From the IMG/VR virus record IMGVR_UViG_3300029197_000003: a stretch of DNA of 64,000 bases. The stretch is one strand, 5' to 3'. Source of the DNA: a virus. Shown one piece after another: positions 15,701-54,536 of this stretch. How positions within the stretch are numbered: the first letter of the stretch is position 1; each line of letters opens with the position of its first letter. A model generated the notes under the pieces. That model saw nothing but the letters and a program-made list of their open reading frames with translations, had not been told where the DNA came from and made no database searches. The position numbers and the translations under genes are program-made.

Positions 15701-16000
15701 AAATATCCATCTGCGCATAATTGCGACTGCTCATAGTGATATAAGCGTTATATGGATTTTCAAAGTCTCCAAGCTTAAAGCCGCCGTTTTTCTCTATGGC
15801 GTGTTGTAAGTCCTGAAGAGGAGAAAGCATGTCAACCCACGCGGTACGTTCAAGGTGCGAACCTCTCGTCACAAGTCTTTCATAAGTATCCTTGGCAAGG
15901 ATTTCCTGCAAATTATCCAGTTCTCCGCGGAGCAAAACGGAGTGCTCCTTCTTCTCCGTGTCGGTCATCGCGTTCTTCCCAGCCTTCAATTTATAACGCA
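12777..16000 (-). other. giant ORF: C-terminal module of about 1,070 aa with a hydrophobic cluster
   Basis: It contains YYIPLRGFDE (about 15226-15262). I recall a PLxRFG-type motif in large phage proteins, but this is unverified. A TM-like cluster AGMLMWDGAAVTLGMLSAMCIPLMLSAIGG lies at about 13805-13915. Confidence 0.35.
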
Positions 16001-35011: not shown

Positions 35012-37129
35012 TTAGCCATAAAGGGCCTGCGCTCCTTGCTGAACGGCCTGCATGTTTGTTCCTTGCTGTATCTGCTGTTGAAGCTGCGGCGGTAATCCCT
35101 GCGGCTGCTGCCCGTTAGCGATTTGCTCCTGCTGGCTCTTTACACTCTGCAAGAGACTATCGGCAAACGGGAAGTTACCATTTTCAAGCAACTGTTCCAA
35201 CGATATTTGACCACTCCGCCAAATCTCCATTAGGAAGTCATTGGCGAGCTGACGGTAAACAGGGGATGACGCACTATCCTCAATGCTGAGGTCATACTCA
35301 ACGTCCTGCATCTTTTCTGGGTCGTACTCCACTTGTGCGCCCCTTCTTCCTGCAATATTGATAATGCGCTTGCTGTCGTAGTATTGCTGTATATTCTTTA
35401 CCGTCTTGTACGCGCCGTCTATTATGAAGTTGTTGAAACTTTCAAAAACATCACTCAACGATACGGCTGCATTGTTGGTCTGCTGAGCATAAAGCGTTCC
35501 GCTGGTTCCAGACTGGGCCTGCTTGCCTTGGATGGCTCCAGTTACGCCGCTCACATTCTCAAAAAACTTCAATTGCAGACTAAGTATTTCATTGATGCCA
35601 ATGTTGGTTGAGTTGTTCACCACCTGTTGGGGGATGCGTCCGCTCTTTCCTGGCTTGTAGAATACAACACCATTAAACTTACGCCATTCGCTGGCAAAAC
35701 GCTTCATGCTAACACCTTCGGGGATACAATCGGTAGGAATCATAAGCACACCCTTTGCCGTGGCGCGTATCAGCCAGTCAAACAGGGTTATCAGTCGGTT
35801 CACGTAACGCTGCTGGTCTATGAATCCACCCATAAAACTCTTAATAACGCCATCAATGAATGGATATGCCTTGAATACGTATGGATGACTCTTATGGGCG
35901 TAGGGTGTCTCGCCCTCATCCAAAATATATCCAAGCGGAGTAATGAAGTAATAATACCAATAGGAATCCAAAAACGCCTCGGCCTCTATGAGCGGTATGT
36001 CGTCTTCTGCCATGCCAGCGGACGTACCTTGTGCGATTCGTTGTTCGTTGACGCTTACGACAAGTTCTTGGTAGTCCGCTTCGTCAACCTTGAAGTATTC
36101 TCCAGTATTGAGGTCGTGACATCGAAATCTCGGTTTCTGTTCTTTCCTCCACACTTCTATCACCCTGCACTTGTTTGTGTCTTCGGCAAAGAGAAAGTCA
36201 AGGCGTTTAAGGTCAAAGTTACCAAACTGACGCATAGAATAACTTATCTGCTCACGAGTTCTTGCGCTCTTGTATATCTCTTTAAGGTATCGCGCATCAT
36301 CACTACTCTTGGCAAACTGAGAGCATAATTCTTCAAAGGTAATATCGTGTATCTCACCAATGCAGTTGACATCCCATCCTCTGAAATCTCGCACGCCGTC
36401 ATCAATGAAGAAATAATTTGGATTCACATAATCAATCCAGCAATCATTGTTCTCATTGCGCCATTCATACGACATACGATGCACCACAAAGCCGCTGATG
36501 AGAAATTCTTCAAAACTTCTTGGCTTTACTTCATTCATTCTGTTCTTCTGCATCACGCATTGAAGCACAGTACTCATGGTCTCGCTCAACTCCTGCTCGT
36601 CGCGGTCTCTTGCAGAGCAAAACGGCTCTTTGTTTTGTGAACGAAATACGCCGAGCATACTGCGCATAACGCTCCACATGTGGTTGTTCTGTAAAGGTTC
36701 GCTACCCTGTGAACGGATATAGTCCGACTCGCGCATCTTCGTGGTGCATCCGAGCCTTCCTTGCACTTGAATGTAGTCACCAAGCTGGTCGCCATATACA
36801 TACCTTCTTGTCCTCTCGCGTTCCTTGCGGAAGGTCTCCATATTGTTCCAGTAGTCCTGCACTTGATAGAGGATGGCAAGCCCACGGCGATTCCCCTTTA
36901 GTTTTGAACGCTCAACGGTATCAAATTCCACATTGGGTTTGACACGTCTTCCGCTGACAACGCTCATTGAAAATAATTTGTCGGCCATAAAATCATGATT
37001 TTTCACGAAAATAATAACACGGCGTGTTATGCTTTCAATATCTTTAAAATACAGATGGGGCGTACCAATAAGCACGCCCCATCTCTTCACGTCAAAATCT
37101 TGTTTACACTCTCTTTCAGCATACGACAC
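35012..37129 (-). CDS. portal protein
   Basis: About 660-705 aa. An alternative start, MADKLF, lies at 36988. It has the RRYVYGDQ motif near the N-terminus, a Q-rich C-terminal tail, and a size and position typical of portals. Confidence 0.7.
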   Translation of the reverse strand: MSYAERECKQDFDVKRWGVLIGTPHLYFKDIESITRRVIIFVKNHDFMADKLFSMSVVSGRRVKPNVEFDTVERSKLKGNRRGLAILYQVQDYWNNMETFRKERERTRRYVYGDQLGDYIQVQGRLGCTTKMRESDYIRSQGSEPLQNNHMWSVMRSMLGVFRSQNKEPFCSARDRDEQELSETMSTVLQCVMQKNRMNEVKPRSFEEFLISGFVVHRMSYEWRNENNDCWIDYVNPNYFFIDDGVRDFRGWDVNCIGEIHDITFEELCSQFAKSSDDARYLKEIYKSARTREQISYSMRQFGNFDLKRLDFLFAEDTNKCRVIEVWRKEQKPRFRCHDLNTGEYFKVDEADYQELVVSVNEQRIAQGTSAGMAEDDIPLIEAEAFLDSYWYYYFITPLGYILDEGETPYAHKSHPYVFKAYPFIDGVIKSFMGGFIDQQRYVNRLITLFDWLIRATAKGVLMIPTDCIPEGVSMKRFASEWRKFNGVVFYKPGKSGRIPQQVVNNSTNIGINEILSLQLKFFENVSGVTGAIQGKQAQSGTSGTLYAQQTNNAAVSLSDVFESFNNFIIDGAYKTVKNIQQYYDSKRIINIAGRRGAQVEYDPEKMQDVEYDLSIEDSASSPVYRQLANDFLMEIWRSGQISLEQLLENGNFPFADSLLQSVKSQQEQIANGQQPQGLPPQLQQQIQQGTNMQAVQQGAQALYG

Positions 37130-37406: not shown

Positions 37407-37895
37407 CTATCCTCGCTTTTTGCTCCTCTTGGAATAAACAAAATAATACCACGCGCCAATTATCATCAGCAATACCGCTGCAAACTGAAACAAGCAGTCT
37501 TTGAATCGCTGCAAAATCGGCGGTTTCTCCTTCACCGTCTTGTTTTCTTTCTCCTTTCTCGTCTCTTTCTTGTCCGTTACACTCGTCTGCTGCTCTTCCT
37601 GCTTAGCATTGATAAAGTGCTTTGCGTTTCGGTTAGAAATGATTTTCTTTTCGCGTTCCGTATCGGTGCGAAGAACCTTGCCATCTGAATCAACCGTTAC
37701 CATTGTTAGCTCGGTAATAAAGACGGTGTCGGAGAGATATACGGTGTCAGCAATCGTAAGAATCTGCCGTTGTATCAACGTGTCACGTCTCTCTATCCTC
37801 ACTGAATCCGTGAACTCTTTCTCAACGATCGTTGTCTTGCGCGAACATGAAACAAGAGAGAGAAGAACAATAAAGAATAACAATGCCTTTTTCAT
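37407..37895 (-). CDS. unimolecular spanin candidate
   Basis: The start MKKALLFFIVLLSLVSC contains a lipobox (LVSC). A C-terminal TM helix, FQFAAVLLMIIGAWYYFVY, is followed by a basic tail. Its ATG overlaps the upstream stop as ATGA. Confidence 0.55.
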   Translation of the reverse strand: MKKALLFFIVLLSLVSCSRKTTIVEKEFTDSVRIERRDTLIQRQILTIADTVYLSDTVFITELTMVTVDSDGKVLRTDTEREKKIISNRNAKHFINAKQEEQQTSVTDKKETRKEKENKTVKEKPPILQRFKDCLFQFAAVLLMIIGAWYYFVYSKRSKKRG

Positions 37896-38152
37896 ATCAT
37901 CGCAATCAAAATGCCTGCAACATCGCAAAAGAAGTCCTTCCACTCTGATGTTCCCTGCCCTGTGAATCTGTCGAGCAATTCCTTGGAAACGGCAACCAAC
38001 AGCATGACGGCTACCATAACCCATACTGGCAGGAAGATAAGTGCCATCTTGGAGATAATAGTCATTACGATAATATGTGTAAGGCCATCAATGCTAAGTG
38101 AGGCAGCGAAGCCTGCCACCTTGCTGCATAGCTTGTAAAACCACTTAATCAT
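37892..38152 (-). CDS. holin-like membrane protein
   Basis: 86 aa with 3 hydrophobic helices. It lies between the endolysin and the spanin, with overlapping stops and starts. Confidence 0.45.
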   Translation of the reverse strand: MIKWFYKLCSKVAGFAASLSIDGLTHIIVMTIISKMALIFLPVWVMVAVMLLVAVSKELLDRFTGQGTSEWKDFFCDVAGILIAMI

Positions 38153-38682
38153 TTGTTCAAAATAAGATTGTCGTACATAATTGAATTAATTCGGCGTTCC
38201 CATCCTCTAAGGTTTTCTTGCTGGCTCTTGTCGTTCTTAACAATACTCTTGACGAACAACAACCGCATTTGCTTGATACGTCCAAACAACGGCAAGCCGC
38301 TTGTGCTGTTGACGGCAGCCAACGTCTTGTTGCCGATGATGCCGTCAACCTTCACGCCTACGAGCTTCTGTAATTGTCGCGCCGCCGTGCCAACGCCGCT
38401 TGCCCATGCCCAATCAACCATGATGTTAGCAACATTCTGGTCTGCTACCTTGTCAAGTCTCAGCGCATCCCAGTACATGGTTTTGAAAATCTCCTCCCAT
38501 TCGCTGGTAGTCATCGCTTTCAAGGTTTCAACCGTTGCAGGCTTGCCCTTTTTAGCGCAATACCCTCGCCACGTGTTTATCGTCACGCCCTTGTTTGTCG
38601 CGCCTCCTCTGTCGTTCTTTCGGTTGCAAAAACCGCCCTCCCATGATAAAATGAAGGGAATTATTTGTTTGTAATTTGCCAT
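38149..38682 (-). CDS. endolysin: GH108-type lysozyme plus a peptidoglycan-binding domain
   Basis: ILSWEGGFCNRKNDRGGATNKGVT matches the GH108 EGG...D.GG.T..G motif. The C-terminal VKVDGIIGNKTLAAVN is PG_binding_3-like. Confidence 0.8.
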   Translation of the reverse strand: MANYKQIIPFILSWEGGFCNRKNDRGGATNKGVTINTWRGYCAKKGKPATVETLKAMTTSEWEEIFKTMYWDALRLDKVADQNVANIMVDWAWASGVGTAARQLQKLVGVKVDGIIGNKTLAAVNSTSGLPLFGRIKQMRLLFVKSIVKNDKSQQENLRGWERRINSIMYDNLILNK

Positions 38683-38767
38683 GTTGAATTATTTTTGTAA
38701 TTTTGTGGTGAAAGTTCTGAGAAGGTTAATGATGTATGCGTCTCAATGTTCGCACGTCTCAATCCAT

Positions 38768-39907
38768 TCAGAACTTTTTTATTTTTATAATTCCTCGATT
38801 AATCCATACTACGACTTTTTCTTTCTTCGTTGAATAGGTTCTCGAATATCCCTTGCGAAACCTTACTGCATACGCAATAAAGGAAAAACTCTTCGAAGGT
38901 TTTATTCTCGCCACACGGTTTATATCGATATTTTTACGAACTCGAAAGTAAGTCGTTTTGTTATTAATTTTTACCTCATGCCTATGGGGAATATGGTTTT
39001 CAATTGTAACTTTAAACTTTCTCCTTCTTTTGTAGGTGTAAAATCGAATATTTAATAAATCAAGTTCATCGTATTTTATAAAACCTTTTGAACTGCCAAT
39101 GCCTACTGGCTCGCAATAAGAAATTAGATTTCTTTTATCACTGTCTACGACATAAGAAGTGGAAGGAAGATTTTTTAGGTGTCTAATCTCGTATTTTTTG
39201 GATGACAACATTAATCCATTATCCATCAGAAATTGATTTAATCGCTCAGTCCTAATTATCTTAATATCCCCCGCCTGTGCGTTACTATACAAGTTTGTAG
39301 TACGGGTAATCTTAGCTAAAACATGTTGAAATGGTACACGATTAATATCATATAAATAGAGATATAAAACTAATAAATAACTTACGCGTTCTGGCTTAGT
39401 ATCTCCATAATTACTGTCTATTAATCTTTTTATTTCTGCAATGCTTTTACCTTCAATATCAGTTACAATAGGACCACAATAAAAAACAGACCCTCTGCTC
39501 CAAAATCCATTTTTGTCTATAACATCATACATAAAGGCAACGATATTTTTAGTGCCAACTTCGTATCCTTCTTGTTGAATACTTGGGAAACGAAACACCG
39601 CTGAATCATCCAATTTATCCAAATCAACCTTGAATTTAATCCTGCCATCGTGGAAGTAATAAAAATTACCCTTCTCTGGTGTCATCGGAATGGCCTTGTG
39701 TACAATCAATTTATTAAATCTTTTTGCCCCCCCCTGTTGACAAAACTTCATCCCATTAAACACAATCTCCCCATCCGTTGTGTAATGCACAACAGGGTCG
39801 CCCGTCTGATGGTCGTTTGTAATTGCCTCCCCTGTCGTTGACCCGACATCCACTTTAAAGAATCTCCCCTCTAACTCATTCCAAGGGGTTACAGGATTAT
39901 TGCTCAT
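38768..39907 (-). CDS. receptor-binding / tail fibre protein, paralog C of a shared N-terminal anchor
   Basis: The start is MSNNPVTPWNELEGRFFKVDVGSTTGEA...VVHYTTDGEIVFNGMKF. The N-terminus is shared with 40993-41856 and 45118-46032. The C-terminus is unrelated. Confidence 0.55.
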   Translation of the reverse strand: MSNNPVTPWNELEGRFFKVDVGSTTGEAITNDHQTGDPVVHYTTDGEIVFNGMKFCQQGGAKRFNKLIVHKAIPMTPEKGNFYYFHDGRIKFKVDLDKLDDSAVFRFPSIQQEGYEVGTKNIVAFMYDVIDKNGFWSRGSVFYCGPIVTDIEGKSIAEIKRLIDSNYGDTKPERVSYLLVLYLYLYDINRVPFQHVLAKITRTTNLYSNAQAGDIKIIRTERLNQFLMDNGLMLSSKKYEIRHLKNLPSTSYVVDSDKRNLISYCEPVGIGSSKGFIKYDELDLLNIRFYTYKRRRKFKVTIENHIPHRHEVKINNKTTYFRVRKNIDINRVARIKPSKSFSFIAYAVRFRKGYSRTYSTKKEKVVVWINRGIIKIKKF

Positions 39908-39908
39908 C

Positions 39909-40403
39909 TTACTTCTCCTCCTTCGTTGCCTCCTCAAACGCCTCGCCTGCATCCTTATCTTTCTTCTTTAGTATAGCGACAATAAAGCGTTTAAAAGAGA
40001 AATTAAACTTCACATTATGTATAGCGCACACGTGGCCTTTAATACTATCCAGTTCAAATATGGCAGCAAAGACAGAGCCTAACGCACCGCCCTCCTCGTA
40101 TGTACCTATACCCATAGGTTCAAGGAAAGACTTGCCAAGCAGCGCACCCGTCATGATGTAAATCATGTACTCGATGAATTTGCAAACGGTTCTTCTCCCT
40201 GCTCTGCTATATCTGAACGATTCCTTTTTCACCTTCACGCTTTCAGTCAGACCCAAATAAAAGTCTGCAATTATCATGAAGATAATAAACAACACCATCC
40301 ACCGCAGACCGTAAAACGTCTCTTCTATCTCTGTCGGAATGGTGTAATACGCTCCAATGCCTGCCAAGGCAACCAACGGATTTAAGATAAATGACGATTC
40401 CAT
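39909..40403 (-). CDS. phage holin-family membrane protein
   Basis: 164 aa with 3-4 TM helices and a charged C-terminal tail (KKKDKDAGEAFEEATKEEK). Confidence 0.45.
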   Translation of the reverse strand: MESSFILNPLVALAGIGAYYTIPTEIEETFYGLRWMVLFIIFMIIADFYLGLTESVKVKKESFRYSRAGRRTVCKFIEYMIYIMTGALLGKSFLEPMGIGTYEEGGALGSVFAAIFELDSIKGHVCAIHNVKFNFSFKRFIVAILKKKDKDAGEAFEEATKEEK

Positions 40404-41958: not shown

Positions 41959-42858
41959 TTACTTGTTTTTATTCTCCCCTCCAACAAGATTAATATTCGT
42001 AATCTCGATAACGTTCAGAAGGCGCATCGTAAATTCATGCCATTCCTTTTCGAAAGGAGCAACCATCTCTGGCGTGACGTGAATCTTATTCAGCGTACCA
42101 ATGATGTTGACGATAAATCCTTTGACGTTGACAGCCTCAAACATACCTTGGTCGTGCTTCATAAAGAACTCGTACAAGTCAATCCAACAAAGGCCCTTGA
42201 ACACCACATCCTTAATGATGTTGGTTGTATGCGTCAGAGAATCTTTACGCATTCGATAGGTGTAGCCGATGGTGTCAGCATACGCTACCTTGTTCGCAAA
42301 GAACATCATCGGAATAATGGTCGGCGTGTCCTCGATATAACGCCTATCGCTATATGGGACTTTGTTGCAGATTTCCTTGCGGATTATCTTGTTATTCATG
42401 AACACAATGCGCTCACCCCAAAACTTGGCAACCTTGTCGCGGCCTTCCGTTATGCAATTGCCGTAGGACGTGGCATCCCATGAGCCATCCTCTTTGAGGA
42501 TTTTCACGCCGCCGCTGACAATATCCGCGCCTGTAGCATCGGCTCTCGCAAGCAGTCTCTTGACAAAATCAAGGTCAATGTAATCATCGCCATCAAGCGT
42601 CATTACATATTCTGCATTTGCGTAGTCAATGCCGCGTCTGCGCGAAAGGCCAGCGCCAACATTCTCTTCATTCTCCAAGAGAGTAATTCCCTTGATTCTT
42701 CTGAGGATGTCAAGCGTACCGTCTGTTGACTTATCTTCAACGACAATAACCTCACACTTCTCTGTCTGATTCAAGGCGCTTGCAACACTCTGTTCAATAT
42801 CTCTTTCAACATTGTATGCCGTAATAACGATGGCACATCTGTACATTTTTCTATTCAT
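41959..42858 (-). CDS. family-2 glycosyltransferase
   Basis: The sequence CAIVITAYNVERDIEQSVASALNQT...VIVVEDKSTDGT...NVGAGLSRRRG...TLDGDDY carries the GT2 DxD/ED pattern. Confidence 0.8.
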   Translation of the reverse strand: MNRKMYRCAIVITAYNVERDIEQSVASALNQTEKCEVIVVEDKSTDGTLDILRRIKGITLLENEENVGAGLSRRRGIDYANAEYVMTLDGDDYIDLDFVKRLLARADATGADIVSGGVKILKEDGSWDATSYGNCITEGRDKVAKFWGERIVFMNNKIIRKEICNKVPYSDRRYIEDTPTIIPMMFFANKVAYADTIGYTYRMRKDSLTHTTNIIKDVVFKGLCWIDLYEFFMKHDQGMFEAVNVKGFIVNIIGTLNKIHVTPEMVAPFEKEWHEFTMRLLNVIEITNINLVGGENKNK

Positions 42859-42922
42859 ATTTCTTGTATGAGAGGATTAGGCAGGATGCACATCTGTACA
42901 CCCTGTCTAAATGTTAGTTTGG

Positions 42923-44263
42923 CTATGCCAGTTTCAAAAGGTCTTCCAAAGCGGAGACACGCCTTGCCAAAGCAGAGATGTCATTGGCGGTGGCGGCGGT
43001 AATTACTTGATAAGAACCTTCTATTTCTTTTCCCCAATTCAAAATACCATCTTCGTCAACCGAAAGCTCTACATTATTGGCAATTTTTACTCCACTTCCA
43101 ATTGCAACTTTATGTGCAACATCGTGTATAGCGACTAGGCTCGTCCCAAGATTTGTGCCTATTATTGTAGTATCAGAAATATCGACACCTTCTCCAATAG
43201 TAACATTTTTATGAATATCGACACCTTCATAAAAACGGATACCACTAGTAAAACCAGCACGAGTCAAACCAATAGCATCAAAACTCTCGCTATTTTCAAT
43301 TAAGATTTTTTCACCAATTTGCGCACCAGTACCAATAGATACATTACCATAAATATAAGCCTTAGGACGAAGAATCGCATAATTTATGCCATTCAAATCC
43401 GAAAATTGATATCCTCCTCCAACGACATCACTCTCTTTTACAATCTTCACATCCCCAATCTTTCCATCCACCGCATCAAGTTTCACCTTATCAGCAGCAG
43501 ACATAACACCAGCCGTGGTAGAGGTGGCAGGAAGAATACCAAGGTCACTTTCCGTAGTCGCCTCTCGTCCGTTGACAAAGGTAATGGTCTTCTTGAATGA
43601 TACGCCATTATCCTGCGCAAATTCCTCCTGTGCGAATTTCACATTTGCAACGGCGGTGTCTTCAATTTCGCTCTTCTTGGCATAGCTCGTCAAATCCTGC
43701 AAGCCCTGCAAAGCGTCCCAGTTCTTGGTGGCAGCAGGGTCAATGGCAGCACTAAAAGCAGTAACACATACCACGTTCACGCCAGCAGGATAAGCCTTGC
43801 CGTCAATGGTTATGGCATCGGTGATATTCCACACATCGCCAGCCTTTGCAGAAGTGAGAGCCTTCAACTGAGCGGCAGTGCATGAACCCTTAGTTGTGTA
43901 GACACTTCCAAGGGCAGAAACCTTCTGGTCTGCATAGCTCTTGGCAGAAGCGAGAGCGCTGTTAGCCTTCGTAGTCGCGTCTGTGGCGGCAGCACTGACG
44001 GCCTCCGTCTTCTTGGTGTCAGCATAGCTCTTCGCTGATGTCAGCGTGGCAGTGTCCTTGCTGTCAATTTCGCTCTTTGAATAAGTTTTGCCGCTTGCAG
44101 AGGCGATAGATGCTTTCAACTCTTTGTTGATGTCGCTCTGTAATTTATCCTCTTCAAGGTCAACGACCTGTGAGGCTTCAACTGCAACACCGTCACTCGT
44201 GTCTGATTTGATACGAGATGTATACTTGATATAATCGGATGCTACTCCGTATTTTTTTGCCAT
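42923..44263 (-). CDS. tail fibre protein
   Basis: 446 aa. It has repeated SAKSYAD...K fibre repeats and a C-terminal beta-helix-like region of G-x-hydrophobic hexapeptide-type repeats. Confidence 0.65.
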   Translation of the reverse strand: MAKKYGVASDYIKYTSRIKSDTSDGVAVEASQVVDLEEDKLQSDINKELKASIASASGKTYSKSEIDSKDTATLTSAKSYADTKKTEAVSAAATDATTKANSALASAKSYADQKVSALGSVYTTKGSCTAAQLKALTSAKAGDVWNITDAITIDGKAYPAGVNVVCVTAFSAAIDPAATKNWDALQGLQDLTSYAKKSEIEDTAVANVKFAQEEFAQDNGVSFKKTITFVNGREATTESDLGILPATSTTAGVMSAADKVKLDAVDGKIGDVKIVKESDVVGGGYQFSDLNGINYAILRPKAYIYGNVSIGTGAQIGEKILIENSESFDAIGLTRAGFTSGIRFYEGVDIHKNVTIGEGVDISDTTIIGTNLGTSLVAIHDVAHKVAIGSGVKIANNVELSVDEDGILNWGKEIEGSYQVITAATANDISALARRVSALEDLLKLA

Positions 44264-46035: not shown

Positions 46036-46716
46036 CTATTGTTTTTCTGATGGTTGAATATGAGCATGTCTGTATGCCAATGCCGTCATTACCTGCATTT
46101 GGTCTACGGAAGAGAATACGGCAGCGGCCATTGCTGCATTTGCGTACACAATGGCGCGTCTCAACTTTGGGCATATAGTAATTTTGCCTTCTTTCGCCAC
46201 TGGCTTTTGCACATATTTGAATGATGCGACCTTGGCAGTCTTCGCGCTGCAATAAAACTCCAATACGTTGTTTGGTACATCTATGGCAATTGCTGGGTGT
46301 CTTGGTGTCGCACCAATGCCGCTATATTGGTCTTGAAGACGTTCATAAGCAGGAGTCTCCTGTGCGGTAGGCATTGACACGGCGTAATCCCAGTCGTTCA
46401 TCTTAAACGATACAAGGCGAAGGAAATCACTCGGCAGGGCAACGCTTCCTGCTTGTATGGCGCTACCTTTCTTCTCCTTTCCCCATGATACGATGTAGTC
46501 TTCTCCCTCCTTGACGGCATCATCGCACCCTTCCAACATCTCCAATGGCGCACCTTCTTCAATAGCCGTTGCAGCGTCAACCATTGTGGAGCGTATAATC
46601 TCGTCAAGTGTCAGCGTATCGGTGTCTCCAAGCATGGAAAGAGCCTTGCCGTCCATATTCTGGTCAAGCGCCACTCGTACCTCTTTCACCAAATCGTCAA
46701 TGTTGCAGGTCTCCAT
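46036..46716 (-). CDS. head-tail adaptor candidate
   Basis: 226 aa. The N-terminus IDDLVKEVRVALDQN...TLTLDEIIRS resembles head-tail connector families. The call rests mainly on position. Confidence 0.35.
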   Translation of the reverse strand: METCNIDDLVKEVRVALDQNMDGKALSMLGDTDTLTLDEIIRSTMVDAATAIEEGAPLEMLEGCDDAVKEGEDYIVSWGKEKKGSAIQAGSVALPSDFLRLVSFKMNDWDYAVSMPTAQETPAYERLQDQYSGIGATPRHPAIAIDVPNNVLEFYCSAKTAKVASFKYVQKPVAKEGKITICPKLRRAIVYANAAMAAAVFSSVDQMQVMTALAYRHAHIQPSEKQ

Positions 46717-47194: not shown

Positions 47195-48637
47195 TTACTT
47201 ATGTGCAAGCTGCACGCGTGCATGTGCCTTTGGATAGCGTAGGTACAAGCAGGAGATTTCCTGCAAAACCGCTGCATCCGTGTTGCGGATTCCTGCCTTC
47301 TTCAAATCAAGGACGTTGCGCTTGAACGAAAGGAAGGTTTTCTTTGTGAGGTATTCGGGGTCAAGCACAAAGCCGCAATCCTTCATCTCGCACTGATTAA
47401 ACAACTCGTGGTGAATGGTGAGGATTTCGCCGAAATCGGTTTCCCATGATTTAAACTTCAAGTTCCATTTCTCAACAGAATCCTTCAGGCGGAATTTCTC
47501 TGACTTAACCTTTGACAGGGTAGCAAGGAGGTCGGAGCCACAGAACATAATCTTGCGGCCGTTACTCAATCCTGTACCTACAAAGATGTCGCGTGAGAAG
47601 TCAACCAAGTCGTCATCGCTAATAACGCAAGCGTTTTCCTTTTCGTCCCAATGGCCAATGGTGTACTTGGGGCAACCCATCCACCAAATACCCTTGGTGA
47701 AGTAACGAGCCATACCGTCTTTTGAGGCATGCTTAATAACATTCTTGTCGCCGAAAAGAATACTCATCTCCTGGGTCACACGCATATCGTAGATAGCGTC
47801 TTCTTCGAGGTCGGTGAAGTTCCAGTCAACTTCCTTATCGCTCATCTTGTCAATCGTAGACTGTTCCACCTGAATCATGTAGTTCTGGCAGTACTGCTCT
47901 TCTGCGGTCGGCAGATTATTGAATCGGCCAGTCTGTACATCCAATTCTCCGCATGACTTCCCCATACGTACAAGAACGGTCTTTGCGTTGATGGCAGGAA
48001 GCCAAATGTTGTTGCTCGTCTCGGTTGAAACCTCACCATTAACGGCAAACACCTGCGGATAACCTTCGCTGTCCTTTCCGCACACGCAAAGGACGAGGTC
48101 GGGCACCACTTCCTTCTTGGCGTCATAGGCGGAACCATTCTCCTTGGTGACAGCAGGAACACCGCAAACGCGAATAGTATCATCAATAGTGAAGATATTT
48201 GGGTCTTCAACCTTGAGTGATACGCGGTCGCCGCCAGTCTGCTTAACTACCGCTTCTTTAAGAAGGGTCTTAGTTGGACGTGTTCCTACGCTGTAGTACT
48301 TGACAATAAATGAATCCGTCTGTTGGGCGCTTGCCTGTCGGCTGATTTGGTCAATCGGCGTTGCCATAGGACGGATTTTGCAAATCTTCTGGTCAATGTC
48401 TTTGACGTAGAAATCGGGGTCTCCGTTCTCTCGTCCGTGCTGCATGGTGGCGGCACCTTCAACATTCATAGGCTTTTCTGGGCTTGCCGTGCCGCTGTCG
48501 GTCTTACCTGCGTCGGGCAAATCGGCGGCGGCAGCCATCATGACATTACCGCCTGCACCCAAGACAAAGCATAATACACTAAGAAGCAGGAAGCCAACAA
48601 ACTTCATTGCTCCTTTAAAACTGATAGTCTGTTTCAT
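47195..48637 (-). CDS. major capsid protein (HK97-fold type) with an N-terminal hydrophobic leader
   Basis: The start is taken at MKQTISFK, 22 nt after the scaffold stop. The core has IDQKICKIRPMATPIDQISR...TDFGEILTIHHELF...VLDPEYL...ISCLYLRYPKAHA, a pattern typical of capsid proteins. It lies downstream of the scaffold gene and is followed by a strong terminator. Confidence 0.65.
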   Translation of the reverse strand: MKQTISFKGAMKFVGFLLLSVLCFVLGAGGNVMMAAAADLPDAGKTDSGTASPEKPMNVEGAATMQHGRENGDPDFYVKDIDQKICKIRPMATPIDQISRQASAQQTDSFIVKYYSVGTRPTKTLLKEAVVKQTGGDRVSLKVEDPNIFTIDDTIRVCGVPAVTKENGSAYDAKKEVVPDLVLCVCGKDSEGYPQVFAVNGEVSTETSNNIWLPAINAKTVLVRMGKSCGELDVQTGRFNNLPTAEEQYCQNYMIQVEQSTIDKMSDKEVDWNFTDLEEDAIYDMRVTQEMSILFGDKNVIKHASKDGMARYFTKGIWWMGCPKYTIGHWDEKENACVISDDDLVDFSRDIFVGTGLSNGRKIMFCGSDLLATLSKVKSEKFRLKDSVEKWNLKFKSWETDFGEILTIHHELFNQCEMKDCGFVLDPEYLTKKTFLSFKRNVLDLKKAGIRNTDAAVLQEISCLYLRYPKAHARVQLAHK

Positions 48638-48659: not shown

Positions 48660-49493
48660 TTATTTGAATTTTGTTCGTTTTTCGTCAGAATCCCAAATGC
48701 TTCCGCGACTGGCGATAGCATCCAGTGCGCCAAGGTCAGGGCTGCTCTGACTTTTAGACGCGCCACGGCTCTTTCCTCCGAGTGAAGGAACACCATCGCT
48801 ATTCTTACTTTTTTTCAACTTCATGTCTATTTTCGCGTTGCGACCTCTGATTTCCCCCGCGTTTCCTGCTTCTTGCACATCCATGTCGTGCGTGATGGAT
48901 TTACGGGCGAGGTCAAGGCTTTCTTCTGTGAACTTACCTACGATAGCATCTGATGCAATCTGAACGATAAACTGAAAGGCTTCATCTACTTGTTCGTCTG
49001 TCAAATTGTTTTTCTTTTGCCAGTCGTCTGCGGCCTGCAAGGAATCGTCAAGGTTCTTCCTATATTCCTCCTCAAGGCTCTTTTCCTTGGCGACACGTTC
49101 AACATATTCTCTGTTCGCCGCTGCCACCTCTTCCTGCTTCTCTGGGTCGTTGGCCATATCGCCGACATCCTTTCCATACAATTTGATGAGCGTGAGGCGA
49201 GGGTCGCCACCATTGGCGAAGTCGGCAAACAGTGCTGCGTTGCGTTCGTCAGCGTTGAACATATTCGTCAACTTTCTTTCGTCTTCGCGGTAGCGGTTCA
49301 ATTCGCTCTCCGTACTGTCGTAGTCGTCAGAAATCTGGCCGAACATAGCCTCTTCATCATCAAAGTTTTTGTCGGGATATTTCTCAGAAAGTCGCTTCTT
49401 GAATGCGTCACGCTTGCTTGGTGTAGGCGTGGCCTCTCCTGCCGATGGAATCTTCACGTTGCCATCACCCGTACTAACTTGTTTATCTGCCAT
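48660..49493 (-). CDS. scaffolding protein
   Basis: 277 aa, acidic and helical, with a basic C-terminal tail. It lies directly upstream of the capsid gene. Confidence 0.6.
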   Translation of the reverse strand: MADKQVSTGDGNVKIPSAGEATPTPSKRDAFKKRLSEKYPDKNFDDEEAMFGQISDDYDSTESELNRYREDERKLTNMFNADERNAALFADFANGGDPRLTLIKLYGKDVGDMANDPEKQEEVAAANREYVERVAKEKSLEEEYRKNLDDSLQAADDWQKKNNLTDEQVDEAFQFIVQIASDAIVGKFTEESLDLARKSITHDMDVQEAGNAGEIRGRNAKIDMKLKKSKNSDGVPSLGGKSRGASKSQSSPDLGALDAIASRGSIWDSDEKRTKFK

Positions 49494-49617: not shown

Positions 49618-50016
49618 ATGAAGAAAAAGTTTAGTACGATAGAATACGAGGGCGAGAGAGCGAGAGAGGTTATACATGCCTGTCGGGAGACAATGAAAAA
49701 AGTGAAGCATATCAATGTCCTTGACATCTTCGCAGAGGCCGTCAAGCAGCCATCGTCTCGCTACTGGGTAAGCGAGGACCGCGCAATCTATGTGATGCGT
49801 CGGATGCTTCGTGGTGACGACCTGTCTTACATGAGGCAGACGAAGCGAAAAATGTTCTACGAGCTTTTCTGGCGGTTCATCGAATGCAAGAGAAAGCACG
49901 AGGATGCAGGCGTGTGTAATATTGTCCGAAAGATAATATACACGCCTGCATCCTCATTTTTTCTCACATCGGCATCAGCAAAGGCAATATATTATAAGCA
50001 TAAGGATGAAAAATAG
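49618..50016 (+). CDS. hypothetical protein, small-terminase candidate by position only
   Basis: 132 aa. It is the first gene of the operon that contains TerL. Confidence 0.3.
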   Translation: MKKKFSTIEYEGERAREVIHACRETMKKVKHINVLDIFAEAVKQPSSRYWVSEDRAIYVMRRMLRGDDLSYMRQTKRKMFYELFWRFIECKRKHEDAGVCNIVRKIIYTPASSFFLTSASAKAIYYKHKDEK

Positions 50017-50494
50017 CAATCTTGACATAAATATCTTGTTGGCGGTCTCGTTGGCGCTTTTCGTGTTATCGTTCATCAGCCAAGATTCCGTGCAAATTTC
50101 ACGGAATATGGCCTTAAATCGCCTATTTTATCCCCTTTTTCACGCCAACTCGATTCATGCGATTTTAAATATATTTTGCATTCTTCAATTGGCGTTCTAT
50201 TACCGCATGTCGCGTTGGTATCTGCTGGCATCTTACATCATTGCCGTAACGGCACCTTCCAGCCTTATTGAAGGGACGATTGGTTTTTCTGGGGTTATCT
50301 TCGCAGCACTTGGCCTATATTCGATGATAGTAACAAGAGGGTGGGTGATTGCCGCTCATGTGGCCTTATATTGTTCGCTGACGGCATTATTTTCGTGTGT
50401 GAATACTCTACTGCACCTTTATTGTTATGCGGTTGGCTTCGTCTGCTCACTATTAATAACTGAAAAACAATGGTGGAGATGGAGAAAGATATAG
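50006..50494 (+). CDS. rhomboid-family intramembrane serine protease
   Basis: 162 aa with about 6 TM helices. FHANSIHAILN fits the TM2 H..xxH...N motif. GFSGVIFAALG fits the TM4 GxSG motif, with the Ser codon at 50288-50290. LLHLYCYAVGF supplies the TM6 His and Gly. Confidence 0.7.
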   Translation: MKNSNLDINILLAVSLALFVLSFISQDSVQISRNMALNRLFYPLFHANSIHAILNIFCILQLAFYYRMSRWYLLASYIIAVTAPSSLIEGTIGFSGVIFAALGLYSMIVTRGWVIAAHVALYCSLTALFSCVNTLLHLYCYAVGFVCSLLITEKQWWRWRKI

Positions 50495-52590
50495 AGCGGA
50501 TAATAGCAGAGGACAACGAGCGCATGAAGCGCTACCATTATGAGCCTAACCCGATAACAGGGGAAGGCTATTTTGGCGAGCGCGAGAAGATTGAGATAGA
50601 TGACTTCCCGATTCCTGTGCAGTTGGTTCCTAAAAGGATGCTGAAGATACCGTTCGTCAAGCAGCTGGTCAAGCATGGCAGTATAGAGAACTTCCTCTAT
50701 GAGGTGATGGAGGAGGAAAACACGGAAGAGGCACGTGACACGGTTGTGCAGCAATTCATTCGATACCGCATCCGCTATGATTTCCCCTTTTTCTCGGCCT
50801 TGTTCCTGTATATTAAGGCGAAAGGTGGAGGCCGTGACATCCTCTTTCGCTTGACACGCCCACAACGCAGATTGGTCAATCGCTTCATGGAGCTATATGA
50901 AGCCAAGAAGCCAATACGTATTATTCTTTTAAAGGCTCGTCAGCTTGGCGGTTCAACACTCATTCAGTTGTTCATGCTATGGATGCAGATAACGCAGGAA
51001 TACGGCCTTAACTCGCTCATTATCGCTCATCAGTCTATCGCATCGGACGAAATCCTTGATATGTTCAACAAGGCAGTAACGCAGCTGCCTTCATGGATAT
51101 TACATAAGCTTGGAGAGCAATACAAGGCGAATGAATCTACATTTGTCAATGTCGGCCACAGCGGAGCCATTAAACGTGTTCCTCAGCGAGATTGTAAGAT
51201 TAAGGTCGGAACCGCTGAGCGTCCTGATTCCTGCCGTGGTGGTGACTACAACCTTATCCACCTCTCCGAGGTTGGTCTATGGAAGACAACAGATGGAAAA
51301 AGCCCAGAAGACATTGTGCAGTCTGCCTGCTCTGGTGTCCTCTATAAGCATCGCACAATGATAGTGTATGAATCAACCGCTAAGGGTGTAGGAAACTTCT
51401 TCCACCGCGAGTTCCTTGCTGCCTTTGAGGGGAAATCGCAATTTGAAGCTATCGTTATATGCTGGTATGACATCGACCTTTATGTTCTGCCATTCGCAGA
51501 CGATAAGGAAAGAGAGAGCTTCGCGCGTTCAATGTATGAACATAGGAACGACACAGAAGCATCTTCTGAACGTGAGGAATGTGGCCAATACATCTACTGG
51601 CTATGGCAGAAAGGTGCAACATTGGAGGCCATAAACTGGTACATAGCTGAGCGCCGAAAATATTCAGACCATGCCCGTATGGCCTCAGAGTACCCCTCTG
51701 ATTACATTGAAGCCTTCAGCTTCAGCGGCGAAATCGTCTTCGACCGCCATCAAGTAGAAGAATTGCGTCACACATGCAAGGCTCCTCGTGCTGTCGGTGA
51801 CATCGTGGCTGACGCTAATGAAGGCATGAGAGCATTATCTAACGTTCGTTTCAGCGAAGAGAAGAAGGGTGGTTTGTCAATATGGGAATATCCAGAGATA
51901 TTCACGGATAACACGGTGGTTACTGACAGATATTTGACTGTTGTAGACATCGGTGGTCGTTCTTCCAAGGCAGACTGGTCGGTTATTGTTGTCTTCGATA
52001 GGTTCGCCATGCAGTGGGGTGGAAAACCAGAGGTTGTGGCCCAGTGGTACGGACACATAGACATGGATATTCTCGCATGGAAGGCAGCACAGATAAGCAG
52101 ATATTACGACAATGCAGAACTGGTGATAGAATCCAACACGTTAGAGACGCATGACAGGGAGCGAATGGTTGACGGCGACCAATCTGGTTATATTCTCAAC
52201 CGCATCAAGGATTATTATCCTAATCTATATGCTCGCGACCAATCAGAAGAAGAAATATTGCAGAACGCGCCTAAGAAATATGGGTTCCACACCAATACAG
52301 CGACCAAGCCAATTGTCGTCAGTGCATTGCAGCGAGCGGTGAGAGAGAGACTCTATGTTGAGCGAGACGGCAGGTGCCTCGACGAGATGATTAGCTATGA
52401 GCGCAAGCCAAATGGCGCATTTGGTGCCATTCTCGGCTGCCACGATGACCTGCTTATGACGAGAGCTATTGGCATGCACATCTGCTTCTCTAAGATGCCG
52501 CTTCCAAAGATAGTTGACAAGACAAGATATGTTGAAGAAGTCTTCCAACACGAGATACCAGGTAAAAATATTGACAACGAAAAACGTTAA
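50470..52590 (+). CDS. terL: terminase large subunit
   Basis: 706 aa. LLKARQLGGSTLIQ is Walker-A-like and LIHLSEVGLW is Walker-B-like. The C-terminal nuclease motif is TVVDIGGRSSKADWSVIVVFDR. Confidence 0.9.
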   Translation: MVEMEKDIERIIAEDNERMKRYHYEPNPITGEGYFGEREKIEIDDFPIPVQLVPKRMLKIPFVKQLVKHGSIENFLYEVMEEENTEEARDTVVQQFIRYRIRYDFPFFSALFLYIKAKGGGRDILFRLTRPQRRLVNRFMELYEAKKPIRIILLKARQLGGSTLIQLFMLWMQITQEYGLNSLIIAHQSIASDEILDMFNKAVTQLPSWILHKLGEQYKANESTFVNVGHSGAIKRVPQRDCKIKVGTAERPDSCRGGDYNLIHLSEVGLWKTTDGKSPEDIVQSACSGVLYKHRTMIVYESTAKGVGNFFHREFLAAFEGKSQFEAIVICWYDIDLYVLPFADDKERESFARSMYEHRNDTEASSEREECGQYIYWLWQKGATLEAINWYIAERRKYSDHARMASEYPSDYIEAFSFSGEIVFDRHQVEELRHTCKAPRAVGDIVADANEGMRALSNVRFSEEKKGGLSIWEYPEIFTDNTVVTDRYLTVVDIGGRSSKADWSVIVVFDRFAMQWGGKPEVVAQWYGHIDMDILAWKAAQISRYYDNAELVIESNTLETHDRERMVDGDQSGYILNRIKDYYPNLYARDQSEEEILQNAPKKYGFHTNTATKPIVVSALQRAVRERLYVERDGRCLDEMISYERKPNGAFGAILGCHDDLLMTRAIGMHICFSKMPLPKIVDKTRYVEEVFQHEIPGKNIDNEKR

Positions 52591-53410: not shown

Positions 53411-54004
53411 ATGAACAAGACACTGACGATTCATATATACTTGACCGAATTGCTTCATGAGATTGCTAAGACATCGTGGCAAATCGGCCGTTCTCGCAAG
53501 GGAATGCAGCAAGTATCTCACGCGGAAGACATTCAGGATATAGATGAAGAGCGGATATTGCGCTCCGTGCAAACGGCAATGAAGGATGTGAGGATTGCTC
53601 TTGCTGAATACATTGTAGAAGGTGCGACGACGGCAGATAATATATTATTATCAGCAACACGCAAGGCCGTTGCAGGCGATAACGCGATAACAATGACATG
53701 GGGTAGCGGAGTGACCGAGCAGGAAGAAGATAATGTAATCACCTTCGTTCTCCGCGTTCCTTCCAATTACGCGAATGGCCAAACTGATTCACTCGCCACT
53801 TCTACTCATTCCTATATTGTGAACTACGCCCTGTCTGAATGGCTATTGCAGACAGACCCAGCAGAGGCAGGGAATTACAAGCAGATGGCAGCAGAGGCGT
53901 TGCAACAGTTATATGCTGCATCCTTCGCGCGTATTCAGCCTCGCCGTGCGCATGCACCGAAAAACAAAAAACCACTAACCAATAACGAAGTGAGATATGA
54001 ATAA
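53411..54004 (+). CDS. hypothetical head/neck protein
   Basis: 197-aa ORF, tightly packed with its neighbours. Confidence 0.45.
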   Translation: MNKTLTIHIYLTELLHEIAKTSWQIGRSRKGMQQVSHAEDIQDIDEERILRSVQTAMKDVRIALAEYIVEGATTADNILLSATRKAVAGDNAITMTWGSGVTEQEEDNVITFVLRVPSNYANGQTDSLATSTHSYIVNYALSEWLLQTDPAEAGNYKQMAAEALQQLYAASFARIQPRRAHAPKNKKPLTNNEVRYE

Positions 54005-54536
54005 CTGTAGAATACCACGCACAACGAGAGTGACAATAAGACTGAAGACGAATAATCTTCTATACGACATCGCTCAAGCAGGATTCCTTTCCGCTGAAGC
54101 TGTTGCATTGAGGTATCAGGATAATCAGCATGTGAAGCACCGCATGAAGGATGTTGTAGAGGATGGTAATGTTGACATTGTTATCCGCGAACTTGACAAT
54201 GCCTACACGCATTCCATGTTGCAACTGTCTCAGTTCGCGCCTCCTTCTCCACGAGAAGAGGATATTACAATGACGGATGATTATAACGACTATCGAGAGA
54301 GCTACGACTATACCATACTCATCAACTATGAGCACGTACGCTTCCTTGCTGAGCGCCTGACCTCGCTGCTTCATGATTATCTTGTGTCATCTGCAATCTG
54401 CCACTATATCTCTGTTGTTGCAGACACATCACACTCGTCTGAATTATACAAGCAGCGAGAAGAAGATACCATTGGTGAGATTATCGCCATGCTATCCATG
54501 TATGATTGTGAGAGACCAATCACGGCTACAATGTGA
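53997..54536 (+). CDS. hypothetical head/neck protein
   Basis: 179-aa ORF. It overlaps the upstream gene by 8 nt. Confidence 0.45.
   Translation: MNNCRIPRTTRVTIRLKTNNLLYDIAQAGFLSAEAVALRYQDNQHVKHRMKDVVEDGNVDIVIRELDNAYTHSMLQLSQFAPPSPREEDITMTDDYNDYRESYDYTILINYEHVRFLAERLTSLLHDYLVSSAICHYISVVADTSHSSELYKQREEDTIGEIIAMLSMYDCERPITATM

Follow-up and report, generated by a model that had tools for sequence, protein, structure and literature searches.

A phage rhomboid as candidate maturation protease for the leader-bearing major capsid protein of temperate Bacteroidales phages

The major capsid protein encoded in a 64,000-nucleotide stretch of viral DNA (IMG/VR virus record IMGVR_UViG_3300029197_000003; hereafter the window, meaning the whole stretch that was analysed) begins with a leader that is conserved across its family and looks like a membrane-targeting signal, and an open reading frame (ORF) for a predicted rhomboid intramembrane serine protease lies 1.4 kb from the capsid gene. 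Comparative genomics strongly suggests an enzyme-substrate link between rhomboid and leader, and we lean towards the view that the rhomboid removes the leader. The broader proposal, on which our judgement is evenly poised, is that in a large clade of temperate Bacteroidales phages the rhomboid serves as the capsid-maturation protease, with an HK97-fold precursor being tethered to the membrane and then released by intramembrane proteolysis. An earlier note on this DNA, made from the letters of the window, had drawn attention to the leader and named rhomboids among the enzymes that might cut it; this guess has since gained strong circumstantial backing, as the head module that holds the capsid gene also holds a catalytically intact rhomboid gene, and hydrophobic leaders occur together with it. 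The finding is real and unusual, and it fits best among the cases in which a capsid matures by loss of a propeptide, as a variant of them.

The N-terminal leader of the capsid precursor

The capsid gene occupies positions 47195..48637 on the minus strand and encodes an SU10-like, HK97-type major capsid protein of 480 residues, as assigned by Pfam, PHROG, Foldseek and synteny. The Pfam family SU10_MCP (PF17236) matches residues 76-475 above its curated cut-off (E 4.6e-28; 99 bits against 24.1), and phrog_26635 covers residues 8-479 (E 3e-211), so that the family profile takes in the leader. The AlphaFold2 model of the protein is of modest confidence (predicted local distance difference test, pLDDT, 58.6), with a helix at residues 7-25 and pLDDT below 50 over residues 27-119, and was relied on solely for the capsid fold and the N-terminal helix. 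Searched against the PDB with Foldseek, this model returned phage capsids as its top matches (VP1, P1, S6, crAss001 and P22; the first, VP1 9in6, at E 3.6e-9), with low TM-scores. A capsid-family sequence profile matched phage VP1 as the sole entry in the PDB (E 5.5e-6), and no close relative with a solved structure emerged from this profile search.

As the earlier note had it, the first ATG after the scaffold stop (48660) lies 22 nt downstream, at 48637, and opens a frame of 480 codons that runs without a stop to 47195. Codons 1-45 (48503-48637) hold the signal-peptide-like leader described there, and its basic n-region, hydrophobic core and small-residue stretch are confirmed by both the sequence and the homologues. 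The N-terminus (MKQTISFKGAMKFVGFLLLSVLCFVLGAGGNVMMAAAADLPDAGKTDSGTASPEKPMNVEGAATMQHG...), encoded on the minus strand, runs from a Lys-rich stretch through a 14-residue hydrophobic core and a small-residue box (GAGGNVMMAAAA) to the motif LPDAG and a low-complexity linker. Read from the sequence, the n-region (codons 1-12; 48602..48637; MKQTISFKGAMK) contains three lysines (K2, K8 and K12). The core (codons 13-26, F13-L26; 48560..48601; FVGFLLLSVLCFVL) is delimited by sequence, hydropathy and the AlphaFold2 helix, and the best 15-residue Kyte-Doolittle mean of the leader is 2.73. Homologue counts and the ratio of nonsynonymous to synonymous substitution rates (dN/dS) define the box (codons 27-39; 48521..48559; GAGGNVMMAAAAD), in which a candidate cleavage region lies around A37/A38, and homologue counts define LPDAG (codons 40-44; 48506..48520). 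The linker that follows (codons 45-60; 48458..48505), rich in Gly, Ser, Asp, Thr and Pro, varies in sequence and length among homologues and was modelled by AlphaFold2 with a pLDDT below 50. The earlier note had proposed about 50 disordered residues before the capsid core; the disorder stands, and the length does not, being ~20-25 residues here, with ~50 as the family median distance to the anchor motif RPMATP.

Codons 1-38 show the traits of a Sec-type signal peptide, namely a positive n-region, a hydrophobic core within ~10-15 residues and small neutral residues at -3/-1 (A35-x-A37), together with a long c-region of 11 residues. A lipoprotein signal was considered and ruled out, since Leu precedes Cys23 and there is consequently no lipobox. 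Among the head, neck and tail proteins of the window, the capsid protein alone starts with a hydrophobic leader; the other window proteins with hydrophobic N-terminal segments are the holin, a lysis-cassette lipoprotein and small early proteins. An ORF within 37407-38024 (minus strand) carries a classical short lipoprotein signal (MKKALLFFIVLLSLVSC), far shorter than the capsid leader, and illustrates an ordinary signal of the same phage.

Conservation of the leader extends across the family. A search for capsid homologues found 3091, the best 120 of which are 58-98% identical and without exception share the same N-terminal architecture (120/120). An exhaustive search of 50%-identity cluster representatives yielded 631 clusters, with the leader kept down to 27-30% identity. 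Among 203 full-length homologues with the RPMATP anchor, 192 keep a hydrophobic leader, down to 27% identity, so the conservation in related capsid genes to which the earlier note had looked is borne out. Across the family, the n-region has a median net charge of +3, and 91% of leaders reach +2 or more; the 15 residues C-terminal to the hydrophobic stretch have a net charge of 0 or below in every leader of the 192-leader set. Within the hydrophobic core the residues differ between homologues and the hydrophobicity stays. In a 40-sequence alignment A35, P41, D42 and G44 are invariant, and G27, M34, A37, L40 and A43 are at least 90% conserved. The consensus from the box onwards, over 138 homologues, is G-A-S-S-G-V-[MLI]-M-A-x-A-[ST]-x-L-P-D-A-G-[KV]-T-x-[SG]-G; counts per position out of 138 are G 112, V 116, M 121, A 129 and A 116 in the box (the two Ala being the -3 and -1 sites), and L 133, P 134, D 132, A 129 and G 138 in LPDAG. 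The values of dN/dS, from 36 independent pairs, are 0.33 for the n and h regions, 0.17 for the box and LPDAG, 0.20 for the linker and 0.08 for the capsid body. The range of 0.17-0.33 across the leader contradicts the idea, raised in the earlier note as a way in which its reading could fail, that the leader evolves like noncoding sequence. From these comparisons, the leader is translated, conserved and under purifying selection, and it resembles a membrane-targeting signal.

About 12 database proteins were first taken as leaderless relatives. The fetched loci all have in-frame hydrophobic leaders upstream, and these entries, which probably reflect miscalled starts, were therefore left out as negative controls. 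Eight capsid homologues (P0035, P0047, P0062, P0073, P0078, P0083, P0097 and P0102) are 70-90 residues longer and carry immunoglobulin-like (Ig-like) or related domains (PF02368 Big_2, PF13287/PF13290), suggesting decoration domains fused to the capsid protein.

The phage rhomboid and its co-occurrence with the leader

The predicted protease is a minimal six-helix rhomboid of 162 residues, encoded at 50006..50494 on the plus strand, overlapping the preceding ORF and the start of the terminase gene, and assigned by profiles and invariant residues. Six residues, H46, H51, N55, G93, S95 and H137, do not vary among 45 diverse phage copies, each of which is 19-38% identical to the window copy. H46, H51 and N55 form the H-x4-H-x3-N motif of helix 2. 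G93-F-S95-G96 provides the G-x-S-G at the start of helix 4, where the profile aligns to GLSGVV of GlpG, and the catalytic His of helix 6 is H137, located inside the region aligned to GlpG 2nr9. Judged by these positions, the ORF has all the rhomboid catalytic residues. A rhomboid-family profile matched Haemophilus influenzae GlpG (2nr9) over its full length at E 2e-9 and Escherichia coli GlpG at ~4e-6, and all 45 phage copies match Pfam Rhomboid PF01694 (best E 7e-13). The phage rhomboid appears to resemble rhombosortases most, a rhomboid subfamily whose task is to remove a terminal sorting signal composed of a motif, a membrane helix and a basic cluster (PMC3237569, PMC6219818): at E up to 0.01, the rhombosortase model TIGR03902 is matched by 33 of the 45 copies (best 1.3e-7), against 6 for GlpG models, and the window copy itself has no NCBIfam match. 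Six hydrophobic segments can be read in the window sequence, of which a stricter automatic hydropathy scan flags four, and hand counts of Lys and Arg over the aligned copies place both termini in the cytoplasm and the active site facing the periplasm, as in GlpG.

Rhomboid homologues occupy the same position in essentially every related locus. The gene looks inserted between a 132-residue ORF and the terminase gene, and these two abut where the rhomboid is absent (L089 and L328). Both leader and rhomboid are carried by the cultured Bacteroides phages BKO1-TP3, BS-TP4 and BF1-TP2, in which the GenBank label of the rhomboid gene is either "rhomboid" or, in BKO1-TP3, "glycoside hydrolase"; our literature search found no paper discussing this gene in the cultured relatives. 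Several head genes appear to be wrongly annotated in the GenBank records of these relatives (PQ571269, PQ571277 and PQ571263), with the terminase labelled "tail spike protein" and the capsid protein "DUF2951 domain-containing protein".

The presence of the rhomboid follows the state of the leader across a set of distinct capsid sequences with at least 3 kb upstream, pooled from viral contigs, genomes and metagenomes, in which a leader was scored as strongly hydrophobic at a 13-residue Kyte-Doolittle mean of at least 2.0. In the clade of the window, all 150 capsid genes with a strongly hydrophobic leader have a rhomboid (150/150), as do all four of a distant clade, 30-35% identical, with the box GVxDAGAMTAD; two further loci agree. 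By comparison, none of nine leaderless capsid genes is accompanied by one (0/9). Weak leaders are divided, the rhomboid being present in 8 of 27, near the threshold, and absent from 19 of 27, whose leaders are mostly decayed and charge-interrupted (for example, MRKVRKMIDQLPQMLLQGAALLAGADTG). Leaderless variants start 1-7 residues ahead of LPDAG (MNLPDAG, MSTTSSPLPDAG and MEPTYLPDAG), and these starts may mark roughly where the mature N-terminus would lie; most variants whose leader is decayed or missing retain LPDAG. The cleanest single case of joint loss of leader and rhomboid is L328, in which portal, terminase, small ORF, scaffold, capsid and adaptor genes follow in the usual order, the leader is broken (MRKFWNVLYGIEGRRSQMKMAASTLPDAG), and the small ORF abuts the terminase gene, leaving no room for a rhomboid.

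A pathway consistent with these observations can be proposed. The capsid protein would be made as a precursor with an N-terminal membrane-targeting leader, formed by a basic tail, a short hydrophobic helix and the conserved small-residue box, and this leader would take it to the inner membrane. The rhombosortase-like rhomboid would then recognise the box and remove the leader near M-A-x-A/[ST]-x-LPDAG (cleavage at the slash, ~A37/A38 here), and the freed subunits would assemble with scaffold and portal. The rhomboid would thereby stand in for a classical prohead protease, of which none was detected, tying the supply of capsid subunits to the inner membrane. The box and LPDAG, together ~20 residues, are conserved far beyond an ordinary signal-peptide c-region, as would be expected if a dedicated enzyme recognised them. 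That the leader enters the membrane, that the rhomboid cuts it, at which site, and with what topology, are all points that we infer.

Topology, exceptions and rival explanations

Several observations weigh against cleavage of the leader by the rhomboid, the first of which concerns topology. The positive-inside rule puts the N-terminus of the leader in the cytoplasm and would have the following part exported, the rhomboid loops predict a periplasm-facing active site, and known rhomboid substrates are normally N-out (PMC2941825). With an N-in leader and an active site on the periplasmic side, a simple single-span model would release the capsid body into the wrong compartment. Since the capsid body must stay cytoplasmic, the leader would need a hairpin or loop whose tip reaches the active site, the linker acting as the return strand. 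Two ways out can be envisaged: either the core crosses the membrane, presents the box to the active site and lets the linker return to the cytoplasm, sliding back after cleavage, or the motif bends back into the active site, as has been proposed for Star, a type II substrate (PMC2941825). In addition, the published P4/P1/P2' rhomboid motif (PMC2941825) is only partly matched, by Met at P4 and Ala at P1 and not at P2'.

A second difficulty is posed by a related clade (A2; L082-L091 and L113), whose leaders are strongly hydrophobic and differently built, in two segments, and in which no rhomboid or other protease was found within up to 10 kb on each side. This clade shares the scaffold, 138-residue and adaptor genes, and shows that a leader can exist without a nearby phage rhomboid. 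In one example the hydrophobic segments are split by a polar turn, LLLGLIPLLLFAVVMAIIAFYL-GEDS-AGIIFSVAGVAGVG, and in L087 the loop has 25 residues and the second segment 17. Such a design suggests a membrane hairpin with both ends cytoplasmic, and therefore bears on the topology problem. Two stop-to-stop segments of L087, one of them the capsid ORF, read identically on the two strands, which suggests a self-complementary (fold-back) assembly artefact.

Most loci with a decayed or missing leader lack neighbouring terminase and scaffold genes as well, and most of them belong to a single Prevotellaceae lineage, mainly from the rumen, whose modules have had their entire upstream half exchanged, so the losses come down to few independent events. 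Absence of the rhomboid covers 10 kb per side in metagenome loci and 4 kb in genome-collection loci, and a farther copy is possible. Moreover, phages with decayed leaders and no rhomboid still keep the box and LPDAG, which means that recognition by the rhomboid alone cannot explain their conservation. The window rhomboid, taken singly, falls below the Pfam Rhomboid cut-off (17.8 against 22.6 bits; E 0.004). Its AlphaFold2 model, built from 12 near-identical sequences, is unusable (pLDDT 45.5; predicted TM-score 0.28), with helices throughout at low confidence; family membership rests on sequence profiles.

The metagenome scan supplied loci of the Prevotellaceae lineage, for which the viral-contig scan had given nothing closer than 74%. 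The lineage includes rumen contigs (L315, L316, L318, L323, L325, L326, L309 and L310) and a subset of the genomes L191-L246. It keeps the capsid, 138-residue and adaptor genes, with ~80% capsid identity, and has its scaffold, small ORF, rhomboid and terminase replaced and its capsid leader decayed or gone. The replacements in L316 are a 1,929-residue BspA-type leucine-rich-repeat protein with EF-hand motifs and a 215-residue cohesin/dockerin-like protein in the scaffold position. In view of such leucine-rich-repeat and cohesin/dockerin neighbours, domesticated capsid genes outside a phage were considered; the idea was dropped because the downstream 138-residue and adaptor genes are conserved, and these loci are thus still phage modules with a replaced upstream half. 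In six loci (L173, L187, L188, L211, L223 and L225), a Bacteroidales-type capsid gene occurs in assemblies labelled Clostridia, Bacillota, Lachnospiraceae, Oscillospiraceae or Staphylococcus; these labels are probably binning or labelling errors and not true hosts.

Among the rival explanations, the one that survives best holds that the leader is an ordinary Sec signal peptide cut at A-x-A by host signal peptidase I, the rhomboid being employed elsewhere, for instance in clearing leftover leader peptides or in cutting a host protein. It draws on the classical n/h/c build, on a core of 14-16 residues, which is the length of a signal peptide and not of a membrane anchor, on small residues at -3/-1 and on a small-x-small box in 147 of the 192 leaders; the leaders of the A2 clade do without a nearby phage rhomboid, and clearance of leader remnants would account for the co-occurrence too. 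However, periplasmic export of the sole capsid protein clashes with cytoplasmic DNA packaging, the conservation of box and LPDAG reaches well beyond usual c-regions, and leaders pair with a rhombosortase-like enzyme so strictly that a dedicated processing pair is indicated. Substrates of Bacteroidetes signal peptidase I, furthermore, have Gln at +1 (PMC10367356), a tendency and no absolute requirement, whereas the capsid leader has Ser, Thr or Ala there and Gln appears among the 12 residues preceding LPDAG in only 5 of 138 sequences. Taken together, these points make signal peptidase I an unlikely agent of leader removal, if one still to be reckoned with.

Cleavage by an unrecognised soluble protease of phage or host, with the rhomboid unrelated, seems improbable. 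Prohead proteases have been guessed to cut the signal-peptide capsid proteins of the Nixviridae (PMC10367356), and many head-module ORFs in the window have no assigned function. Nevertheless, Pfam and PHROG scans, which very divergent members could escape, detected no prohead protease (S78/U35, S49/ClpP-like or T4 gp21-like) among the structural-module ORFs of the window, and a structure-assisted annotation that covers the first 45 kb of a relative, BKO1-TP3, lists none. The only protease families detected in the window scans are the rhomboid and the S24 repressor, with no others annotated in those 45 kb, and a soluble protease would leave unexplained why the rhomboid tracks the hydrophobic leader. 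We are just as doubtful that the leader is kept for good, whether to tether the protein permanently to the membrane or to serve the procapsid, as a hydrophobic N-terminal helix, in a structural or scaffolding capacity. The A2 leaders, with no detectable protease, and the N-terminal extension retained by decayed-leader variants would suit such a role, but a hydrophobic helix on every copy of the shell protein is hard to square with a soluble HK97-type capsid, natural leaderless variants show that the mature protein does without a leader, and the core decays exactly where the rhomboid is absent. Finally, initiation at a later in-frame Met (MNVEG, codon 57, or MQHG, codon 65), the alternative offered by the earlier note, in which the leader would be noncoding or an annotation artefact, can be rejected with near certainty, because these Mets are unconserved (the M57 column holds a gap or another residue, the M65 column Glu in 36 of 40 sequences, and a Met anywhere between LPDAG and RPMATP occurs in 19 of 120 homologues at scattered positions), and the leader, spanned by the PHROG profile, is kept under selection.

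Known systems, significance and neighbouring genes

The closest analogue of the proposed pair appears to be the GlyGly-CTERM/rhombosortase system of Vibrio and Shewanella (PMC3237569, PMC6219818), in which a dedicated minimal rhomboid likewise co-occurs with a terminal tripartite signal, with a Gly/Ser-rich motif on the outer face of the membrane and basic residues on the cytoplasmic face. The signal is C-terminal in that system, whereas in the phage it is N-terminal and mirrored (basic residues, helix, Gly/Ser/Ala motif), so that the chain crosses the membrane in the opposite sense. Many secreted enzymes are substrates there, in contrast to the phage, with one substrate per genome that is a cytoplasmic virion protein. 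The phage pair is accordingly likened to the system and not counted as a member, as it lacks the C-terminal signal that defines it (TIGR03501).

Other systems share single elements of the arrangement. In HK97 (delta domain and gp4) and T4 (gp23 and gp21), soluble scaffold-like propeptides are cut inside the prohead by soluble serine proteases. The likeness lies in the removal, proposed here for the window phage, of an N-terminal extension from an HK97-fold capsid protein by a protease of the head module; the differences are that the extension here is signal-peptide-like, a separate scaffold is present and the only protease is intramembrane. In staphylococcal phage 80alpha, the capsid and scaffold proteins have short, non-hydrophobic N-terminal leaders that mimic ribosomal protein L27 and are cut by Prp, a soluble, host-encoded cysteine protease. 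This resembles the proposed case in that a protease other than a classical prohead protease removes a short N-terminal capsid leader, and differs from it in the non-hydrophobic leader and the soluble host enzyme. The procoat of filamentous phage (Ff) is a small membrane protein whose leader is cut by host leader peptidase, with assembly proceeding by extrusion through the envelope. As proposed for the capsid protein, it is a virion subunit with a cleavable leader, held in the inner membrane before assembly, but it does not form an HK97-fold shell that packages DNA in the cytoplasm.

With regard to tailed phages of Bacteroidota, capsid proteins with predicted signal peptides have been reported for Porphyromonas gingivalis phages of the proposed family Nixviridae, in one sentence that assumes cleavage by a prohead protease (PMC10367356). 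It is the only prior mention of signal peptides on tailed-phage capsid proteins that our literature search found; the source makes no mention of a rhomboid, and the likeness, which extends to a Bacteroidota host, is drawn from its description. A cytoplasmic N-terminus is found in Star, a type II rhomboid substrate whose motif is proposed to loop back from a flexible segment into the active site (PMC2941825). Star shares this orientation with the capsid leader and differs in belonging to a eukaryotic Golgi/ER (endoplasmic reticulum) system, with a mechanism that is itself a proposal. No description of a rhomboid acting in capsid assembly was found in the literature.

Proteolytic maturation of phage capsids is a textbook process, and all cases known to us involve soluble proteases acting on soluble propeptides. 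Natural substrates of bacterial rhomboids are scarce. If the proposed cleavage is true, the phage rhomboid would be the first protease of the intramembrane kind to act in the assembly of a virus capsid and would represent a new class of maturation enzyme. The capsid precursor would then join the natural substrates of rhomboids as one whose N-terminus is cytoplasmic, and it would speak for prohead assembly gated by the membrane; head assembly would be linked to the inner membrane in Bacteroidales phages that are abundant in gut and rumen. To those who study rhomboids, the pairing offers a single enzyme with a single substrate, in thousands of natural sequence variants, and the apparently "wrong" orientation of the substrate would make the long-debated question of how rhomboids read their substrates directly testable. 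Experiments are feasible because three cultured phages carry both genes. A practical consequence concerns gene callers and annotators, which label these genes "DUF2951", "glycoside hydrolase" or "tail spike".

The remaining genes place the capsid and rhomboid genes in a recognisable phage context. The window contains an integrase, an S24 repressor, an ERF recombinase, a P22-like portal, a terminase and a lysis cassette, and by this gene content it is a temperate phage or prophage; the hosts of the phage clade with capsid leader and rhomboid are Bacteroidales of gut and rumen. The order around the capsid gene is scaffold-like gene, capsid gene, 138-residue gene and SU10-like adaptor gene, with portal and terminase nearby. 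On the minus strand lie the genes for the scaffold-like protein (48660..49493; 277 residues; phrog_22323), in which hydropathy analysis found no hydrophobic segment, for the SU10-like head-tail adaptor (46036..46716; phrog_22135, E 6e-38; Pfam PF24175, E 1.2e-4, below its curated cut-off) and for the P22-like portal protein (35012..37129; Pfam PF16510, E 3.5e-42). Divergent from the scaffold-capsid operon, the 132-residue ORF, the 162-residue rhomboid ORF and the terminase gene follow one another with overlaps on the plus strand. The conserved 132-residue ORF (49618..50016; phrog_27246), without assigned function, stands directly 5' of the rhomboid in the slot expected for a small terminase subunit, and the large subunit is encoded at 50470..52590 (phrog_2, E 1.8e-21). 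Downstream of the terminase gene, two overlapping plus-strand ORFs of 197 and 179 residues (53411-54536) both match phrog_19255, a tandem duplication with no assigned function.

Farther from the capsid gene, the minus strand holds a lysis cassette at 37407-40403, with a holin-like protein (39909-40403) and a GH108 endolysin carrying a peptidoglycan-binding domain (38149-38682). An ORF of ~6,611 codons (19.8 kb; 12777-32615, minus strand) follows immediately 3', in the direction of transcription, of a 471-residue ORF in the portal region. In Bacteroides phage BKO1-TP3 it corresponds to a gene of 16.6 kb that bears the annotation "DarB-like antirestriction"; the window ORF has one hydrophobic segment near residue 6248. 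Among the tail and fibre genes (41959-44263, minus strand) are a family 2 glycosyltransferase gene (41959-42858) and a gene for a 446-residue protein whose C-terminal part has hexapeptide repeats of the left-handed beta-helix type (42923-44263).

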